Shown in pieces: positions 3,230 to 15,234 of a stretch of DNA of 64,000 nt. Position 1 is the first letter of the stretch. The number at the start of each line of letters is the position of its first letter. The position numbers were made by a program, and so were the translations under genes. The stretch is taken from assembly GCA_902385635.1 (NCBI GenBank), contig CABMGN010000004.1:21-64020 (forward strand), written 5' to 3'. The notes under the pieces were generated by a model. That model worked only from the letters and a program-made list of their open reading frames with translations, was not told the origin of the DNA and made no database searches. The DNA is from an uncultured archaeon (GTDB lineage: Archaea > Nanobdellota > Nanobdellia > Pacearchaeales > GW2011-AR1).

Positions 3230-3230
3230 T

Positions 3231-3575
3231 TTAGCACCCAGTAACCCTTTGAAGAGTCTCTATTTGTTGAAGCCCAACATACTGTTTCCCTTCGATAATC
3301 CAGGTTGGTGTTGCCTGAATACTTTTATTCAAACAAAGATCTAAATTATAAAAGCAGTCTATAGTCTTAAGATACTGGTAAGAATCCCCAAACATTTTTT
3401 TCTGGTCTTCACAGTGAGTACACCCAAGTTTAACATATAATTCTGATTTATCACCAATGCATTTTGCAATATCTGCTGGAACTCCGGGATTTAAGCTTCT
3501 AAAGTAGATAACCGAAAGAGCTACAATCACAACGAGAATAATCACTCCAAGAGTAATCATTGAATGTCTTTTCAT
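3231..3575 (-). CDS. membrane-anchored thioredoxin-like CxxC protein
   Basis: N-terminal TM helix, then 'CTHCEDQKKMFG...TPTWIIEGKQYVG...GC', like the Trx-like domain fused to bacterial VKOR. Start moved to the ATG at 3575, because the longer ORF overlaps the upstream gene. Only 2 nt from ccdA. Confidence 0.7.
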   Translation of the reverse strand: MKRHSMITLGVIILVVIVALSVIYFRSLNPGVPADIAKCIGDKSELYVKLGCTHCEDQKKMFGDSYQYLKTIDCFYNLDLCLNKSIQATPTWIIEGKQYVGLQQIETLQRVTGC

Positions 3576-3633
3576 AATAAGACTAGTGTTTAAGAAAGTT
3601 TTTAAGGTTTGTGAATTTAAATTTTCCCGGCGA

Positions 3634-3954
3634 TTAGTAATCAGGAAGTTCTTCTTGAGTCTTATAAGGTTTCTTTGCTGGACTCTTTGAAACACTCTTT
3701 TTTGGAGATTCTTCTGAGTCAAGAGACTCTACTGGCTCTGTTAACATTTCAGATTCATCTATAGAATTGATTATGTCTTTGAATTTTTTGAAATCTCCAC
3801 CAAGGATTCTTACTCCAGATTTTGTAAAACCAGTGTATCTCTCACTAGAAACAAACTCTCTTATTGTAAGCCCTTTTCTTCCGCCAAAATCATCTATTCT
3901 TATTACAATATCAGTAGTATCATTTTTATTGATTTTACCTAAGTCTTTTTCCAT
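3634..3954 (-). CDS. PC4/Sub1-like ssDNA-binding protein with acidic/basic tail
   Basis: 'IVIRIDDFGGRKGLTIREFV...FTKSGVRILGGDFKKFKDIINSID' resembles the PC4 core (DIREY...GRKGISL...QW..L...I..ID). Confidence 0.5.
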   Translation of the reverse strand: MEKDLGKINKNDTTDIVIRIDDFGGRKGLTIREFVSSERYTGFTKSGVRILGGDFKKFKDIINSIDESEMLTEPVESLDSEESPKKSVSKSPAKKPYKTQEELPDY

Positions 3955-3986
3955 AAGAGATGGAGATAAAAACGGTTTATAAAGGT

Positions 3987-4646
3987 TTAGAGTATTTTTT
4001 GAAACTCATTAACTGAGTTAAGAATTGCTAGATGCCTATATCTTTTCAGAGGTTTTCCTTTTTCAAAACCAGTTTTAACTCCGACAAACTCAACTCCCGC
4101 AGATTTTGCTGCTTGGGCGTCATAAATACTATCTCCTACAGCTAGAACTTCTTGTTTTTTTACTTTCATTTTTTTGATTACATAAAGCATCTGCTCGGGA
4201 GAGGGTTTTCCGTGTTTAACATCATCAACTGTGGAAGCTAAAGTAAACATTTTTCTGAATTGTTTAGTAGTTGATCTTACATAAGAACTATAACTAGATC
4301 CTGTTGCTAAAACAAATTTTATTTTTTTATTTTTAAAATACTGAAGAGTTCTCAAAACCCCCGGAATAGACAAATCTTTTTTTCCCAGGATCTTATCATA
4401 GATTTTTCTTCTTTCTATTCTCAGTTTAGAAAAGTCTCCTTTTAATCCGTATTCTTTTTTAAGATGAGTGAATATTTGTTCAGAGTTTTTTCCCATTAAA
4501 GAATGAACATACTTATATGGGACTTTTACTCCGTGTAATTCTGCAACTTTCAGAAAAGCTAGAGTATGATATGGAAGAGAATTTATTAGTGTCCCATCCA
4601 GGTCAAAGATAATAAGCTTTTTTTTAGATAGATCTCCTCTTTTCAT
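3987..4646 (-). CDS. HAD-superfamily phosphatase (beta-phosphoglucomutase/PGPase-like)
   Basis: Motif I 'IIFDLDGTLINS', motif III/IV 'KP...AVGDSIYDAQAAKSAG'. Confidence 0.85.
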   Translation of the reverse strand: MKRGDLSKKKLIIFDLDGTLINSLPYHTLAFLKVAELHGVKVPYKYVHSLMGKNSEQIFTHLKKEYGLKGDFSKLRIERRKIYDKILGKKDLSIPGVLRTLQYFKNKKIKFVLATGSSYSSYVRSTTKQFRKMFTLASTVDDVKHGKPSPEQMLYVIKKMKVKKQEVLAVGDSIYDAQAAKSAGVEFVGVKTGFEKGKPLKRYRHLAILNSVNEFQKIL

Positions 4647-4674
4647 TGAGAAGAAAACAAAAGAATGTTTATAA

Positions 4675-6408
4675 TTATTTCTTATTGTTTTTTAGATGGC
4701 TATTTAGGAAAATAAAGTAATCTGTTTTCTCTGAATTTGCTAGTTTTTCAACTATTAACTCGGGAGTTGAGTGTGCGAGTCTTCCTAAAACGGGGTTGTG
4801 ATCTACAATAAGATTAAATCCTTCGTCAAGACCCTTTGCTTCTATACCGTCGATTCTTGTGAGAATAGGAAGATTTTTTTGGATTTCATATCCTAAATGT
4901 GTTGCGACAATCAAAAAGCAATTTTGTTTTAAGAAAAATTCTGCTGTAGCAGCAATTATCTCTCCTGCAACTCCCGGCTCAGTTACTGACTCTATTTCAT
5001 CTGCAAGAATAAGTGTTTTTGCTCCAGGTTTTATTTTTGACATCTGAGTAAGAAGAGTTTCAAATGCCCCTTTACTCTCAGATCCTTTATTTTTCGCGAA
5101 GTAATATACATCTGTGAAGAGAGGTATCTTTGCTTCACCAGAAATAGGAAAACCCAATTGAGCAAGGGAAACTAATTGTAAGACATGTTCGAGAAGTGTT
5201 GTTTTTCCTCCAGAATTTGCCCCAGTTAAAATAGAACATCTGTAAACATCGTTAAGTTCGAAGGAGATATCTCGAGGATGGTCAAGAAAAATATTTTTTG
5301 AGTTTTTGATTAAAAGTTCTTCAGAAAGTAAAGGAAAATTAGTTTTATCCTTTACAAACTTAGAAGTGCCAGACAGGAAATCAAATAAGATTAGAAAATC
5401 TGAAAGTTCTTGGAGCTTTCTAGGAATTTCTTTTATTCTAAAAGAATTATTTTTTATTTTTTGAGCAGAATCAAAGTATTCTGAACTATTTTTTCTCTGA
5501 AGGAATTTTTCCAGTTCAGGTTCATCAATAGAAACAGGTATCCCGAGATTCAAAACTTCTAAAGGAATGTTTGACTTTCTAACTTCCTCCTGAACTATGG
5601 ATTTTATAGGTGGAGGAAGGATTTGTTTACTAATCATTGCGATTAGAGAATCTCCAGAGACCATCATATCCTTTAATCTATCTGAAACTCGCTCATTGAT
5701 CTTGTCTACCGCAAGTTCTACGCTGTCTCGGGTTATTTCTTCTGACTCGCTTTCAGAGGTAAGATCTAGAAGAGAGCTTAATTCTTGCACCAATTCGTTT
5801 AGTTCTTCAGATATTGGTCCTTTTCTTAAAATTTCTAGATTAGCTTTCCAGGAAGATAATTTTTCAAGATGTCTCTCCAGATAAACTTCTTCTACTGATT
5901 TTAAAAAAACTGCTTGAGGAAGAGATTCAAGAGCGCGAGAGAACTCATCACAGTTAATAATCTGGATTAAATCATACGACTCCAAGAGAGAAATGTCTGA
6001 TTCAGAGATAAGCAATCTAACGGGACAACCTGCTTCTTTTAATCTCATGAAAGTTTGTGAATTTTCAGTCACAACCAGGACGTCATATTTCGGCTTCCAG
6101 GTTTGTTTAAGGGGAAGTAAGAAGTTCAAGAAAGAATTATCGAAGTTTATTGATTTTTTTAGTTCATTAAAGAAAACCTGCCTTTGCTTTATTTCTTCTA
6201 AGCTTTCTGTAAAGGAAAAAAAGTTTAGGAGATTTCCGGTGTCAGGAAAAACAAAATTGTTGGAGATCTTAATTAAAACTCTATTATGAACAGACTTTCC
6301 ATCACGGGTTTTGAAGATAGATTCCGAACCATTCTTTACAGGAGTTCTTTGTTTATTGAATGGGGAAAGATTATTCTCAGAGATAAAATTAAGTAATTCC
6401 TCTTTCAT
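4675..6408 (-). CDS. MutS-family (MutS2-like, domain V) ATPase
   Basis: Walker A 'LTGANSGGKTTLLE', Walker B 'LILADEIES...T', and the C-terminal ATPase layout of MutS domain V. No mismatch-binding or Smr domain recognised. Confidence 0.7.
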   Translation of the reverse strand: MKEELLNFISENNLSPFNKQRTPVKNGSESIFKTRDGKSVHNRVLIKISNNFVFPDTGNLLNFFSFTESLEEIKQRQVFFNELKKSINFDNSFLNFLLPLKQTWKPKYDVLVVTENSQTFMRLKEAGCPVRLLISESDISLLESYDLIQIINCDEFSRALESLPQAVFLKSVEEVYLERHLEKLSSWKANLEILRKGPISEELNELVQELSSLLDLTSESESEEITRDSVELAVDKINERVSDRLKDMMVSGDSLIAMISKQILPPPIKSIVQEEVRKSNIPLEVLNLGIPVSIDEPELEKFLQRKNSSEYFDSAQKIKNNSFRIKEIPRKLQELSDFLILFDFLSGTSKFVKDKTNFPLLSEELLIKNSKNIFLDHPRDISFELNDVYRCSILTGANSGGKTTLLEHVLQLVSLAQLGFPISGEAKIPLFTDVYYFAKNKGSESKGAFETLLTQMSKIKPGAKTLILADEIESVTEPGVAGEIIAATAEFFLKQNCFLIVATHLGYEIQKNLPILTRIDGIEAKGLDEGFNLIVDHNPVLGRLAHSTPELIVEKLANSEKTDYFIFLNSHLKNNKK

Positions 6409-6448
6409 AAAATAAATAATCTGAGAAGTTTTTTAAGGATTTATGTGA

Positions 6449-6757
6449 TTAATCCTTGATTTCAACCTTAATGTTAACGTTTTTTGGTATTTGTAAACGC
6501 ATGATATTGTGAAGAACTTTTTCGTTTGCTGGAAGATCGATAAGTCTTTTGTGGATTCTCATTTCAAATCTGTCAAAAGTAGCTGTACCATTTCCACAGG
6601 GAGATTTTCTAGTAGTTATTTTTAACTTCTTTGTAGGCAAAGGAACTGGGCCAGAAATAACAATTCCGGATTTTGATGCAATATCTTTGATGGTATTACA
6701 AATAGAACTAAGCATTTCGATGTCTGTGCTGTTTAGTTTTACTCTTACTTTAGGCAT
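6449..6757 (-). CDS. rps10: 30S ribosomal protein uS10
   Basis: 'RVKLNSTD...ISGPVPLPTKKLKITTRKSPCGNGTATFDRFEMRIHKRLIDL' is canonical S10. Confidence 0.95.
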   Translation of the reverse strand: MPKVRVKLNSTDIEMLSSICNTIKDIASKSGIVISGPVPLPTKKLKITTRKSPCGNGTATFDRFEMRIHKRLIDLPANEKVLHNIMRLQIPKNVNIKVEIKD

Positions 6758-10770: not shown

Positions 10771-10846
10771 AGCGGGGTAGAGCAGCCTGGAGTGCTCGCA
10801 AGGCTCATAACCTTGAGGTCGTGTGGTTCAAATCCCACCCCCGCTA
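10771..10846 (+). tRNA. tRNA-Met(CAU), A1:U72 (initiator-like)
   Basis: Acceptor AGCGGGG/CCCCGCT, anticodon arm CAAGG-CTCATAA-CCTTG. The T-stem needs one bulged T (GTG-T-GG/CCCAC). There are only two G:C pairs at the base of the anticodon stem, so the initiator assignment is tentative. Confidence 0.8.
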
Positions 10847-10907
10847 CTCTTGTTTTTACTCACAAAAGCAGAATAAAGCTTTTATACTAACTTCTTTTTC
10901 GGTTTGC

Positions 10908-11570
10908 ATGTTAAAATTGGGGATAGATGATGCTGGAAGAGGGCCGGTAATTGGGCCGATGGTTCTTGCTGGAGTTTTGATTGATGAAGCAACAGAAGAC
11001 CTCTTAAAACGGGAGGGAGTGAAGGATAGTAAACAGCTCACACAGAAGAGAAGAGAGTTTTTAGAAAATTTAATAAAAGAAAAAGCAGAAACTTTTGAAA
11101 TTGTAGTTGTCTACCCGGATGAAATAGATGAAAAAACCGCAAAGAATCAGCTAAATGATTTAGAAGCAATTGCCTGTGCAAAAATAATAAATAAAATAAA
11201 CAAAGGGTATAACAAAATAAAAGTTCTAGTTGATTGCCCATCAGTGAGTATCGCCAAGTGGCAGGATTCTTTGAAGCTAAAAATTGAAAACCTTTCAAAC
11301 CTAGACATTTCTTGCGAACATAAAGCAGACCAGAATCATGTTTCGGTTTCTGCTGCATCTATTCTAGCAAAATGTGTTAGAGAAAAGGAGATGGCTATCT
11401 TAAGAGAGAAATACGGAAGAGAAATTGGCTCGGGTTATACTTCTGATCCCCTAACTCAGAGGTTTATAGAAAGATACTCTCAAAAGTATAAAGATGACGG
11501 CATTTTTAGAAAGTCTTGGGTGACTTGGAAGCAAGCACAAGCTGATGTTGAACAAAAGAAACTATTCTAA
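10908..11570 (+). CDS. rnhB: ribonuclease HII
   Basis: 'LGIDDAGRGPVIGPMV...' plus 'SAASILAK' and 'GSGY.SD'. Start moved to the ATG at 10908, because the longer ORF overlaps tRNA-Met. Confidence 0.9.
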   Translation: MLKLGIDDAGRGPVIGPMVLAGVLIDEATEDLLKREGVKDSKQLTQKRREFLENLIKEKAETFEIVVVYPDEIDEKTAKNQLNDLEAIACAKIINKINKGYNKIKVLVDCPSVSIAKWQDSLKLKIENLSNLDISCEHKADQNHVSVSAASILAKCVREKEMAILREKYGREIGSGYTSDPLTQRFIERYSQKYKDDGIFRKSWVTWKQAQADVEQKKLF

Positions 11571-11604
11571 GAATCTTTAAAAATTGGGTTTTCCTTCTGT
11601 AATT

Positions 11605-14463
11605 ATGACTTATATCAAAAAGTTGGTGATGCAGGGATTCAAAAGTTTTGTTAAAAAGACAGAATTGCCGTTCACAGAAGGGATTAATGTTATTCTTGGC
11701 CCAAACGGTTCTGGAAAGTCTAATGTTACAGATGCCCTTTGTTTTGTTCTTGGTAGATTAAGTGTAAAGTCCATGAGGGCAGCAAAAGCAGGAAATTTAA
11801 TCTTCATGGGATCGAAGAATGTTCCGGCAGCAAAAGAGGCTTCTGTTGAACTTGTGTTTGATAATTTATCCAGAATTTTTTCAATTGAGCAAGATGAGAT
11901 TTCTATAAAAAGAATTGTTAGGAAAAATGGGCTTAGTATTTACAAGATAAATGAAGAAACAAAAACAAGACAGGATGTTTTAGGTCTACTTGCACAAGCA
12001 GGTATAGATCCGAATGGATTTAATATAATTCTACAGGGGGAAATTCAAAATTTTGTTAGAATGAATGGTGAAGAGAGAAGAGGAATTATCGAGGAGGTTG
12101 CGGGAATTTCAATTTATGAGTCAAGAAAAGAGAAATCTCTACATGAACTTGAAAAAACTGAAGAAAAGTTAAAGGAGATCACGGCTATTTTAAGGGAAAG
12201 GACAGCATATCTAAACAACTTAGAAAAGGAAAGGCAACAAGCTCTGAAATTTAAGAAACTAGAGGCAGATGTTCAGAAATATAAGGCAAGCATAATCTTT
12301 CACGATCTTTCTAAAAAGAAAAAAGAGATCGAGGGTGTTGAAAAGGAAATTGATCAGAAAAATAAAGAAGTTGAAAAAGTTAAAAAGAAAATACTAGACA
12401 TTCGTGCAGCAATTGAAGGATTTGAGAGCAAAGTTGGAAATATCAATGGGATGATTCAAAAATCTGCAGGCATTGAGCAGGAAAAGCTCAATCAAGAAAT
12501 TGCAAACACGAGAGCGGAACTTGCGGGGCTTACTGTAAAATTAGATAATTACGAAAAAAAGCTTTCTGAGCTAGAAAGGCAGAAACAAGATCTTCAAGAA
12601 ACAGTAAGGAATAATGAGCTTTCTATACGAGAATTACAGAAAGAATCCCCTTCTCTCAGCCAAAAGAGTAAGGAACTAGCTAAGAAAAAACAAGATTTAG
12701 AAAAACTTGAAGAAGAGAGGAAAAAATTCTATACAACTAAAGCTGAATTAAGAGCACTTCGAGAGAGATTGCAAGACAAGCAAGGGATTTTACAAAGCTA
12801 TAATAGTGAAGCTACTTTCTTAATTAAACAAATAGAAAATATTGGGGCGGGCTTATTTGATAAAAAATTCGACGAGAAAAGGATAGATGAGATTAAGGTT
12901 AGCTTAAGAGTCAAAAAAGAAGAATTAGAAGGCATAGAGAAAAGAGAAAGAGAGCTTCAACAGATAATACACACAAGCGAGTTTGAAATAAGTAGGCAGG
13001 AGAAGGTAATAGAAAATATTGCAAAGATGGATATGTGCCCGCTGTGTAAGAGTAAGATAACAAAAGAACATATTTCTAATATAAATAAGGAAGTTGAACC
13101 CCGAGTTAGTTCGCTAAAGAAAGAAATAGAAATGGCAACAAGAGAAATTAATGATATAAACAAGAAAAGGTCTGGATTAAAAGAGTTTATAGAAAAGTCT
13201 CAGGAAGAGATTGTTAAAAGAGAAGCTGATTCTGTGAAGATGTCTGAGATAAACTCTAAAAAAGAGCAGATTAAAGGTTTGCAAGAAAAAATAGATAGAA
13301 CAAAACAAGAAATCTCTGAATTTGACAAAAAAAGAAAGTATATGGAAGAAAACTTTGATGAAAACTCTGGAATCGAGCAAAAATGTGAGTTACTTAGAGT
13401 TGAGATTCAGGAAATTTCATTGCGAAGCGAAGAGACTGTTAATTCAGAGGTTTCATTTAAACAGAGAGAGCTTGAAAGAGCAAAAATAAGTTTGAAACAG
13501 ATGATTAGCGAACATCAGGAACTTGAAGAAGAAGTTGTTAAGATTAAAAAATTGATAAAGGAAAAAGAAGAGCTAGTTGAAAAAAGAAAGCAACAGGAAG
13601 AAGAGCTAAGTAAAAAGTTCCAGAAATTAATTGCAGAAAGAGACCAGTATCAAACAAGTATAAGAGAGAATGAGTCTGAAATGCTGCGGGAGCAGAATAA
13701 GAATTATAGTTTTGAGCAAGAGATGAATAATTTTAAGATCTCTAAAGCCAAGGTTGGGGCAGAAATAGAAAATCTCGAAATAGAGATGCTAAACTTCCCG
13801 AATGTAGAGATAATTAGATCATCCAGAGAGAGTCTTAGTGAGAAGTTGAATAGTGTTAAGGAAACACTTGTTAATATTGGGTCTGTAAATCTAAGGGCAC
13901 TTGAAGTTTATGACTCAATAAAACAAGAATATGATGCTATTACTGAAAAAGTTGAGATAATCAGCAAGGAAAAAGAGGGCATCATGAAAATAATCCAGGA
14001 GATTGATATAAAGAAAAAAAAGACCTTCTTTAGAACACTAGAGTCACTTAATGAGATCTTTTCAAGGAATTTTGCCCAACTAAGTGTAAAGGGTGAGGTT
14101 TATTTGGAATTAGAAAATAAGAAAGAACCTTTTGAGGGGGGTGTTGGGATTGTTGTTAAGACTGGGCACGGGAAATATTTCGATGTAACCTCACTTTCTG
14201 GAGGAGAACAGACACTAGTAGCCCTTAGCCTGATCTTTGGTATTCAGGAGCTGAAGCCGTATAGTTTCTACATCCTAGATGAAATAGATGCTGCTCTAGA
14301 TAAAAGAAACTCTGAGAGACTTGCAGGCCTTCTAAGGAAGTATATGGAGAAAGGACAGTATATTGTTATTACACACAATGATGAAGTTATTTCTAGAGCC
14401 ACAAACCTTTACGGGGTTAGTATGAATGAAGGCGTAAGTAAAGTAGTTAGTTTGAAGATCTGA
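11605..14463 (+). CDS. smc: SMC-family ATPase lacking a hinge, with a central CPLC motif
   Basis: SMC-type head: 'QGFKSF', 'GPNGSGKSN', 'LQGEI', 'LSGGEQTLVALSLIF', 'FYILDEIDAALD'. About 650 aa of K/E-rich coiled coil. No hinge-like globular segment; 'MCPLCKSK' sits at the exact midpoint (13035-13046). Confidence 0.85.
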   Translation: MTYIKKLVMQGFKSFVKKTELPFTEGINVILGPNGSGKSNVTDALCFVLGRLSVKSMRAAKAGNLIFMGSKNVPAAKEASVELVFDNLSRIFSIEQDEISIKRIVRKNGLSIYKINEETKTRQDVLGLLAQAGIDPNGFNIILQGEIQNFVRMNGEERRGIIEEVAGISIYESRKEKSLHELEKTEEKLKEITAILRERTAYLNNLEKERQQALKFKKLEADVQKYKASIIFHDLSKKKKEIEGVEKEIDQKNKEVEKVKKKILDIRAAIEGFESKVGNINGMIQKSAGIEQEKLNQEIANTRAELAGLTVKLDNYEKKLSELERQKQDLQETVRNNELSIRELQKESPSLSQKSKELAKKKQDLEKLEEERKKFYTTKAELRALRERLQDKQGILQSYNSEATFLIKQIENIGAGLFDKKFDEKRIDEIKVSLRVKKEELEGIEKRERELQQIIHTSEFEISRQEKVIENIAKMDMCPLCKSKITKEHISNINKEVEPRVSSLKKEIEMATREINDINKKRSGLKEFIEKSQEEIVKREADSVKMSEINSKKEQIKGLQEKIDRTKQEISEFDKKRKYMEENFDENSGIEQKCELLRVEIQEISLRSEETVNSEVSFKQRELERAKISLKQMISEHQELEEEVVKIKKLIKEKEELVEKRKQQEEELSKKFQKLIAERDQYQTSIRENESEMLREQNKNYSFEQEMNNFKISKAKVGAEIENLEIEMLNFPNVEIIRSSRESLSEKLNSVKETLVNIGSVNLRALEVYDSIKQEYDAITEKVEIISKEKEGIMKIIQEIDIKKKKTFFRTLESLNEIFSRNFAQLSVKGEVYLELENKKEPFEGGVGIVVKTGHGKYFDVTSLSGGEQTLVALSLIFGIQELKPYSFYILDEIDAALDKRNSERLAGLLRKYMEKGQYIVITHNDEVISRATNLYGVSMNEGVSKVVSLKI

Positions 14464-14505: not shown

Positions 14506-15234
14506 ATGAAATCTTTCATTGAAAAGTATGTAAAACCATTAAAGTATCATTACCTTATAGTCGGGGCGTTAATCACCTTGTTCAGTATCTTGCAGTCAGC
14601 ATTTCCAGATTTTGTAGGGCAATCTATTCTTTTGGGCATAGTTCTTTTTGGAATATTAGTAACCTTTACGTACATTTTTTTAGAAATGCAGAGAATATCT
14701 AATAAAAATAAAGGTTCTGTGGATGTTCTATTAGTTACCTTATACGAATTTTTTTACATAATGTTTGTTCTCGTATTTTTTCTAGCAGTTTATCAAAAAT
14801 TTGGTAAAGTCTTTAGTTTTTGTTTAGGATTAACAATCGGGTTGGTTATAATAAGGATATTTGCCTTAATAAGGAGATATTTTGTTATGCTAGAAAAAAT
14901 AGTTCACAACATTTGGGCTAAAAGGGGGATTAGATTTGGGTGTACCTTGGTCATATTAATTTTTGGCCTAATAGTAATACTCTATACAAATAGCCAAAGC
15001 GAATTGTTATCTCTACCCCTGGAGATAGATGCAGTGACTTTAATGCAATGGTTTTATCTTCCGTTGAGCGGAGTAATTTTAATAGGTCTTATGGGAGTAT
15101 TATTGCAGGGGGTGCTCGATATCTTTAAGAAAAATCCGGAGGGGATTGAGAAGGCCATATGGAAAAAGTCCAAGCTATTCCTTCTTATTAAAAAGTTGAA
15201 ACGAAAGAAGCTACCGCTAGTGATTAAAAAATAA
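14506..15234 (+). CDS. polytopic membrane protein
   Basis: 242 aa, about 6 hydrophobic helices, basic C-tail. No family recognised. Confidence 0.5.
   Translation: MKSFIEKYVKPLKYHYLIVGALITLFSILQSAFPDFVGQSILLGIVLFGILVTFTYIFLEMQRISNKNKGSVDVLLVTLYEFFYIMFVLVFFLAVYQKFGKVFSFCLGLTIGLVIIRIFALIRRYFVMLEKIVHNIWAKRGIRFGCTLVILIFGLIVILYTNSQSELLSLPLEIDAVTLMQWFYLPLSGVILIGLMGVLLQGVLDIFKKNPEGIEKAIWKKSKLFLLIKKLKRKKLPLVIKK

Follow-up and report, generated by a model that had tools for sequence, protein, structure and literature searches.

A hinge-less Smc with a putative Rad50-type zinc hook at its arm apex in an archaeon of the order Pacearchaeales

In this study, we analyzed a 64,000-nucleotide stretch of DNA (the window) from an uncultured archaeon of the order Pacearchaeales, which is contig C4 of a 594-kb assembly of nine contigs, and characterized its structural maintenance of chromosomes (smc) gene. 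We found that the encoded protein is an Smc orthologue, although its apex is a variant one and, lacking the hinge, it does not count as a canonical member of the family. The hinge is treated as a defining feature of SMC proteins, and proposals exist that it binds DNA and acts as a DNA gate. In its place, the two strands of the coiled-coil arm are joined by a short loop carrying a CPxC motif, a putative Rad50-type zinc hook. Taken together, the data argue strongly for a derived hinge-to-hook replacement in what is very probably the single functional Smc of this organism, the ATPase of a condensin-type Smc-ScpA-ScpB complex.

The smc gene and its protein

The open reading frame (ORF) of smc runs on the forward strand from an ATG at position 11605 to position 14463 of the window and encodes 952 amino acids (aa). 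An in-frame TTG is present upstream, at 11584. It is unlikely to be the start codon because the orthologues begin at the equivalent methionine and nearly all of them are 944-955 aa long. The translation contains the head motifs QGFKSF (aa 9-14), GPNGSGKSN (32-40), LSGGEQTLVALSLIF (864-878) and FYILDEIDAALD (888-899). The protein has four cysteines in all, at positions 46, 478, 481 and 594, and the second and third of these form the motif CPLC (aa 478-481). The parts of the gene, all on the forward strand, are as follows.

11605..14463, forward strand: smc gene, hinge-less SMC with putative zinc hook, stop codon at 14461-14463; assigned from the ORF, SMC_N, TIGR02168/TIGR02169 and Pyrococcus Smc heads
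11605..12105, forward strand: N-terminal half of the ATPase head, aa 1-167; matches the P. furiosus Smc N-head 1xew_X over aa 1-181 and is a beta/alpha head in the AlphaFold2 (AF2) model
11698-11721, forward strand: Walker A, GPNGSGKS, aa 32-39, within the N-terminal half-head; the Q-loop residue Q144 lies in the same half
12106..13026, forward strand: ascending strand of the predicted coiled coil, aa 168-474, interrupted at aa 207-219, 346-354 (window 12640-12666) and 416-423
13027..13062, forward strand: putative hook loop, aa 475-486, in which CPLC occupies aa 478-481; assigned from the apex alignment, PF04423, PDB profile matches and hhalign
13063..14010, forward strand: descending strand of the predicted coiled coil, aa 487-802, interrupted at aa 606-612 (window 13420-13440) and 730-764
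14011..14460, forward strand: C-terminal half of the ATPase head, aa 803-952; matches the P. furiosus Smc C-head 1xew_Y/3kta_B over aa 803-951
14194-14208, forward strand: signature LSGGE, aa 864-868, in the C-terminal half-head
14266-14301, forward strand: Walker B/D-loop, FYILDEIDAALD, aa 888-899, in the C-terminal half-head; the H-loop residue is H924

An earlier reading of this DNA from its letters (the original prediction) had described SMC-type head motifs, a length of about 952 aa and a CPLC motif at the midpoint of the arm. All of the motifs that it quoted were found in the translation, and the ORF confirmed the length. The centre of CPLC lies at 0.504 of the chain, which is its midpoint, as predicted, but the coordinates given for the motif (13035-13046) were one base off, and the codons occupy 13036-13047. 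We rejected an assembly artefact or a truncated gene as the source of the unusual architecture; more than 150 independent sequences agree in length and in carrying the CPxC.

The heads are those of an Smc

To assign the protein to a family, we compared it with profile models, solved structures and relatives. A Pfam scan of the 952-aa protein matched SMC_N at E 7e-59. Among the NCBIfam models, the two prokaryotic SMC models TIGR02168 and TIGR02169 (SMC_prok_A/B) gave 525.6 and 524.4 bits, and their matches spanned both arm-and-head halves with the hinge positions missing. The Rad50 models reached 60-102 bits against cut-offs of 700-1087. The model for ASRP, archaeal proteins of the SMC superfamily that include ClsN and Sph, reached 122.9 bits, mostly over the coiled coil, against a cut-off of 300 (NF045487). 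In a sequence search of the PDB, the best solved relatives were Pyrococcus Smc heads (5XEI, E 5e-101), and Rad50 heads followed at E 5e-14.

The catalytic residues point in the same direction as the profiles. In an alignment of 61 SMCs, hinge-type proteins included, G32, N34, G35, G37, K38, S39 and Q144 are invariant, and so are the further head residues S865, G866, G867, E868, D892, E893 and H924. The heads are 54-59% identical to those of hinge-type Smc from sister orders. In a maximum-likelihood tree of the head halves, the SMCs of the order form one clade (support 100) among the hinge-bearing Smc of sister orders of the same class. A very long branch (3.6+3.6, in sum more than 7 changes per site) divides the Rad50 proteins of the order from the SMCs. 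The head phylogeny thus placed the protein in SMC, far from Rad50, in agreement with the original prediction. Furthermore, the full-length AF2 model (predicted local distance difference test score, pLDDT, 78.7) matched the Pyrococcus Smc heads 5xei, 5xns and 4i99 at target-normalised template modelling (TM) scores of 0.73-0.91, and eukaryotic SMCs ranked above Rad50.

We also considered that the protein could be a paralogue of Rad50 or an ASRP of the ClsN/Sph type, that is, a hook protein serving repair or compartment formation. This idea draws on the zinc-hook motif without a hinge, as in Rad50 and ASRP (PMC9389158), and on SMC scores of about 525 bits that fall below both NCBIfam equivalog cut-offs, 567 and 729. 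Such a shortfall is to be expected, since about 170 hinge positions of the model go unmatched. The Rad50 models, at about 100 bits against 700, and the ASRP model, at 123 against 300, contradict it, as do heads that lie inside the Smc clade with 54-59% identity to hinge-type Smc. In addition, the protein is the sole SMC in genomes that keep ScpA and ScpB, and a true Mre11-Rad50 pair is encoded separately. We therefore consider such a paralogue highly improbable. A Rad50 paralogue was ruled out by the profile scores, the head tree and the separate mre11-rad50 operon, and an ASRP by its 123 bits against the cut-off of 300.

The hinge is absent across the order

The original prediction had also claimed that the protein lacks an SMC hinge. 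The Pfam hinge family PF06470 gave no match in the 952-aa protein even at E<=10, while the same scan found the hinge in sister-order SMCs at E 1e-26 to 1e-30. None of the 121 genomes of the order matched the hinge profile, so that the claim was borne out for the protein and for its order. Across a phylum-wide sample, the profile matched 237 of 251 genomes. The 14 misses comprised 10 genomes of the window's family (its own included), three genomes without any SMC, and one sister-order genome whose SMC was matched in one piece only.

The same 251-genome sample separated the two architectures by length. A single full-length match of about 952 aa was found only in the window's family. In most other families, ORFs of about 1165-1185 aa were matched in two pieces, aa 1-375 and aa 590-952. 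The window's SMC is thus about 215 aa shorter than a sister-order Smc of about 1165 aa.

The arm ends in a putative Rad50-type zinc hook

To determine the conservation of the apex motif, we surveyed homologues from databases and from the genomes of the order. CPxC was present in 120/120 of the closest database homologues. The genomes of the order supplied 39 further hook-type orthologues, and each of these has it too. A library of 1.84 billion representative proteins gave the same picture: among the best matches, every full-length representative of about 946-1023 aa, and two intein-bearing ones of about 1480 aa, carried the motif. The CxxC is therefore no product of chance; it is invariant in the homologues surveyed, whereas a lack of conservation would have counted against the original prediction. 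In an apex alignment of 30 orthologues (204 residues, 16-50% identity to the window's apex), the only invariant columns are C478, P479 and C481.

We then compared the apex with Rad50. A profile of the apex, run against 177,635 distinct PDB sequences, ranked two P. furiosus Rad50 hooks first, 6ZFF (6.5e-8) and 1L8D (2e-6), with generic coiled coils following from 1e-5. The hook alignment in this search paired 'ld.iCPlCkskitkeh' with 'AKGKCPVCGRELTDEH'. The Pfam zinc-hook family PF04423 matched 27 of the 30 orthologous apex fragments, with a best E of 6e-7, and the window's apex alone at E 5.5e-4. When hhalign compared the SMC apex profile with one built from 21 Rad50 apexes of the order, the probability was 99.5% (E 2e-22, score 122) and the two were in exact register. 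Nine control comparisons of coiled-coil arm segments scored 19-37, three to six times lower. Judged by these sequence comparisons, the apex CPxC is a putative zinc hook of the Rad50 type.

The predicted structure agrees with this arrangement. In the full-length AF2 model, two antiparallel arm strands of about 307 aa each run between heads and apex, with paired breaks. The ascending strand comprises helices 168-206, 220-345, 355-415 and 424-474, and the descending strand helices 487-586, 590-605, 613-729, 741-758 and 765-826. The breaks at 346-354 and 606-612 mirror each other, both 128 aa from the hook, and more breaks lie near the head. We take these paired breaks to resemble the elbow and joint of canonical SMC arms. 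In a separate AF2 model of the apex (pLDDT 94.3), two helices form a hairpin and CPLC lies in the loop between them.

The genome encodes ScpA, ScpB and a separate Mre11-Rad50

A search with the SMC as query found one SMC in the assembly. We found that its presumptive partners are encoded elsewhere in the genome, the gene for ScpA on contig C2 (PF02616; E 1.8e-14 when the genome was scanned, 1.3e-14 for the ORF itself) and that for ScpB on contig C8 (E 2.3e-36). Among relatives, ScpA was found in 18/21 and ScpB in 21/21.

Contig C2 also carries an mre11-rad50 operon, in which the gene for a 393-aa metallophosphoesterase is followed directly by that for a 681-aa Rad50. The 681-aa protein has the hook RIDMCPTC, the signature LSGGERTAVALA and the Walker B motif LVILDEPT, and all 14 of its 14 PDB matches were Rad50. 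It was found with a Rad50 family model; the search with the SMC as query had missed it, which marks the limit of that search's sensitivity. The feature is given below.

Locus L090 (G000:C2:123500-132500), 3230-6458, reverse strand: mre11-rad50 operon; its Rad50, at 681 aa unusually short, carries the hook CPTC (aa 349)

A mini-Rad50 of about 685 aa, its hook closely resembling the SMC's, was present in every sampled genome of the order. Both machines are therefore present in the cell, and the hook-bearing SMC is no substitute for Rad50.

Genes for mre11, rad50, scpA and scpB are absent from the window (contig C4) and were located on C2 and C8. The smc gene is flanked not by mre11 but by the genes for RNase HII and a multi-pass membrane protein.

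10821-11570, forward strand: RNase HII, upstream of smc (PF01351, E 5e-45), separated from it by a gap of about 34 nucleotides
14506-15234, forward strand: 242-aa multi-pass membrane protein, downstream of smc, without a Pfam match

The remark in the original prediction that no Mre11 or ScpA/ScpB gene is adjacent was correct for the window, with ScpA and ScpB encoded on other contigs. Of the genes that it had suggested looking for in the genome, Rad50 and the kleisin ScpA were found, and a second SMC was not found in the assembly.

Hook-less forms and mosaic genes in the same order

The order contains two forms of SMC. The hook form, 946-1023 aa with CPxC at the midpoint, was found in families f1, f2, f3, f8, f9 and part of f4. 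The short form, 781-804 aa (898 aa in f6, with a C-terminal tail), was found in f5, f6, f7 and part of f4, in about 16 of the 121 genomes. The heads of the short forms (loci L045-L053, for example G291:C1:169000-171802 and G016:C9:11900-14900) are normal SMC heads. Hinge and CxxC are both missing from the short-form proteins, as is any cysteine near the arm midpoint, and we found no conserved apex motif in nine short-form sequences. In the scan of 1.84 billion representative proteins, the top matches were of the hook or short type, and hinge-type SMCs ranked lower. Close homologues are labelled Nanoarchaeota or Candidatus Pacearchaeota at source and named 'chromosome segregation protein SMC'.

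Two SMCs from the same genus, L042 (G015:C1, hook) and L047 (G293:C5, short), have heads that are 81% identical, whereas their arms are 34% identical, which is the background level. The arms of L047 are 57% identical to short-form arms from another genus, and the short forms are polyphyletic on the head tree. This head-arm mosaic, together with the polyphyly, suggests that whole arm-apex modules may have been exchanged between hook and hook-less forms by recombination. Going further, one could tentatively regard the Smc arm plus apex as an exchangeable cassette, a long arm with a Rad50-derived hook and a short arm that has neither hinge, hook nor cysteine being swapped by recombination between lineages with near-identical heads, with the short form working with ScpAB without an apex joint. 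If this were true, a stable link at the arm tips would be no universal requirement for SMC function.

Three further observations were made among the SMC genes surveyed. In one relative, locus L059 (G277:C20:300-3900) encodes a second, very divergent SMC of the hook type (984 aa, 31% identity, CPVC at aa 486, 497 bits with TIGR02169). It sits on a 5.5-kb contig and could be a paralogue, a foreign copy or a mis-binned contig of another organism.

In some relatives, the Walker A loop of the SMC is interrupted by an intein of about 520-540 aa (GPNGSGKS^C...HN^SN). We found such genes at L073 (G356:C1), L074 (G363:C12), L075 (G290:C24) and L072 (G106:C12), in both hook-type and hinge-type SMCs. The SMC of L073 matches the Pfam families Intein_splicing and LAGLIDADG_3, the latter a LAGLIDADG endonuclease. 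SMC ORFs of about 1490 aa in the order and about 1700 aa in other orders suggest that the intein is widespread.

Sister orders also contain SMCs that bear a hinge yet have short arms (L066 and L067 of family f31, and L068 of G204; 944 and 893 aa; PF06470 E 3e-26 to 5e-28). Because such proteins exist, arm shortening and hinge loss are separate events in the class.

Proposed mechanism of the hook-bearing Smc

In the mechanism that we propose, the chain would fold back into an antiparallel coiled coil of about 300 residues, with the half-heads at one end and the 12-residue CPxC loop at the other. Two chains would share one Zn2+ through four cysteines at the tip, as in Rad50. The heads would engage through ATP and be bridged by the kleisin ScpA. 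The outcome would be the usual closed SMC-kleisin ring or rod, which would entrap DNA and move along it. We infer zinc binding, hook-mediated dimerisation and ring formation by analogy, and the apex link is plausible because engineered swaps of hook and hinge work (PMC5344682, PMC6969161).

Several observations weigh against this interpretation. With PF04423, the window's SMC gave 16.9 bits as a whole protein (aa 466-508) and 20.1 bits for the apex alone, below the cut-off of 24.3. The Rad50-like hook of the original prediction is thus upheld by sequence likeness (the apex profile, hhalign and 27/30 PF04423 matches) but not by the sub-threshold score of the window's SMC with this family. A Foldseek search of the apex model against the PDB was discarded as evidence for a hook, since every long helical hairpin matches and the search does not discriminate. 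LmuB and Smc arm fragments headed its ranking, where Rad50 hooks were 26th and 41st. The assembly, in which a single SMC was found, is 79% complete. Moreover, the genomes with the short form keep ScpA and ScpB, and given these short forms the lineage may have no strict need of a dedicated joint at the apex.

The hook cysteines could also have a different role. They could, for example, bind a metal within one chain together with His489, act as a redox switch or belong to a loop for partner binding, and SMC dimerisation would then depend only on arm-arm, head and kleisin contacts. The hook-less and hinge-less SMCs of about 800 aa in the same order would fit this, as would a histidine at +11, which is common but not invariant. 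However, CPxC is invariant while some members have Y, D or A in place of this histidine, and the sequence matches the solved Rad50 hook (1L8D, 6ZFF), in which four cysteines of two chains are bound to one zinc. We thus judge a different role of the cysteines to be improbable and retain a zinc-mediated link of the two arms as the probable function of the motif.

Evolutionary origin of the hook

The hook form arose late, as a derived replacement, and does not stand between SMC and Rad50, since it occurs in a single order and the SMC heads of that order group as one clade among hinge-bearing Smc. The swap would have happened a single time, at the base of this DPANN order or close to it. The combination of SMC heads with a Rad50 apex might be read as an ancestral intermediate between the two families. 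This is extremely unlikely; besides the restriction to one order and the position of the clade among hinge-type Smc, the sampled sister-order SMCs carry a hinge, with one possible exception (the SMC matched in one piece). The original prediction had held the architecture to be relevant to how the SMC and Rad50 families diverged. This was not supported by a form that occurs in a single order, among hinge-bearing Smc, in cells that also keep an ordinary Mre11-Rad50.

As to the source of the hook, we lean slightly towards the possibility that the module was copied from the resident rad50 gene by recombination. This is favoured because every sampled genome has a mini-Rad50 with a very similar hook, and because the flanks show weak similarity. 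A point against it is that the case for a Rad50 origin consists of a motif of about 26 aa and this weak flank similarity. In the profile-profile comparison, the 26-aa hook core alone scored 58, and matched flanks scored 29-32 against 17-21 for mismatched ones.

Alternatively, the CPxC hook could have evolved de novo in the SMC arm after deletion of the hinge. Its likeness to Rad50 hooks would then come from common structural constraints, and zinc-mediated dimerisation would still be the function. The concentration of strong similarity in about 26 residues (58 of the score of 122), with weak flanks at 29-32, speaks for such convergence, and the hook of the window's own family (CPLCKSKIT.EHI) is less Rad50-like than that of the basal families. 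Nevertheless, the pattern common to both proteins exceeds CxxC, comprising I(-6), L(-3), CPxC, K/Q, V/I, EHK and L/I(+15), and the families other than f1 come nearest in it to the consensus of the resident Rad50. The SMC consensus outside f1 is '..I.EL..CPKCKR..T.EHK..L', and the Rad50 consensus of the order is '..I..L..CPTC.Q.V...HK..I'. Matched flanks also outscored mismatched ones, and the apex profile found Rad50 hooks first among the 177,635 PDB sequences. We therefore regard a de novo origin as rather doubtful, and copying from rad50 as the account that the shared pattern tends to favour.

Relation to known systems and significance

The protein most resembles the prokaryotic and archaeal Smc of Smc-ScpAB (TIGR02169/TIGR02168; Pyrococcus 5XEI, 5XNS, 4I99). 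They have in common the head sequence, motifs and predicted fold, a predicted long antiparallel arm with paired breaks, a single gene copy, the ScpA and ScpB genes and the phylogenetic position. It differs in that it has no hinge, and a 12-residue CPxC loop closes the arm instead.

With the Rad50 zinc hook (PF04423; 1L8D, 6ZFF; the resident 681-aa Rad50), the protein shares an antiparallel coiled coil that has CPxC at its apex, and the flanking pattern I..L..CPxC.+.V..EHK..I. Unlike Rad50, it has SMC-type heads, its predicted partners are the kleisin and ScpB and not Mre11, and its arms are about twice as long as those of the resident mini-Rad50.

Replacement of the hinge by a hook has been engineered. 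In the B. subtilis chimera Smc(Zh), the P. furiosus Rad50 hook replaces the hinge and normal growth is supported (PMC5344682, 2017). Hinge and hook are also interchangeable in Rad50, where the reciprocal swap works in yeast (PMC6969161). Like the window's protein, the chimera combines the heads and arms of an Smc with an apical hook of the Rad50 type. It is, however, a laboratory construct in a bacterium, whereas the gene described here is natural, fixed across an archaeal order and under selection.

Among natural proteins, ASRP (ClsN, Sph1/2) are archaeal members of the SMC superfamily with a zinc-hook motif and without a hinge (PMC9389158), but their heads form a separate family, whereas the window's protein is an Smc orthologue. 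Marine Actinobacteria-like metagenomes have yielded SMC variants without a hinge that also lack CXXC (Sussfeld et al. 2025, PMC12153180). They are likewise cases of natural hinge loss, and they resemble the hook-less forms of about 800 aa in this order, not the window's SMC. Searching the full-text literature for a natural hook-bearing Smc, with incomplete coverage that leaves an earlier description possible, we found only engineered chimeras, ASRP and the CXXC-less hinge-less variants. In the literature searched, the hinge-to-hook swap in Smc is otherwise reported only as a laboratory chimera.

Public annotation of these genes reads plain 'chromosome segregation protein SMC', and the difference at the apex is currently invisible there. 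The small natural hook-bearing SMCs and their hook-less relatives of about 800 aa offer material for structural and single-molecule work on which steps of DNA loading and loop extrusion need a hinge. The hook may also represent a transfer of a module between two paralogous genes of the SMC superfamily within one genome. An archaeal order that has a minimal putative hook and keeps ScpA and ScpB would be natural evidence that the apex only needs to hold the arms together, as the chimera suggested.

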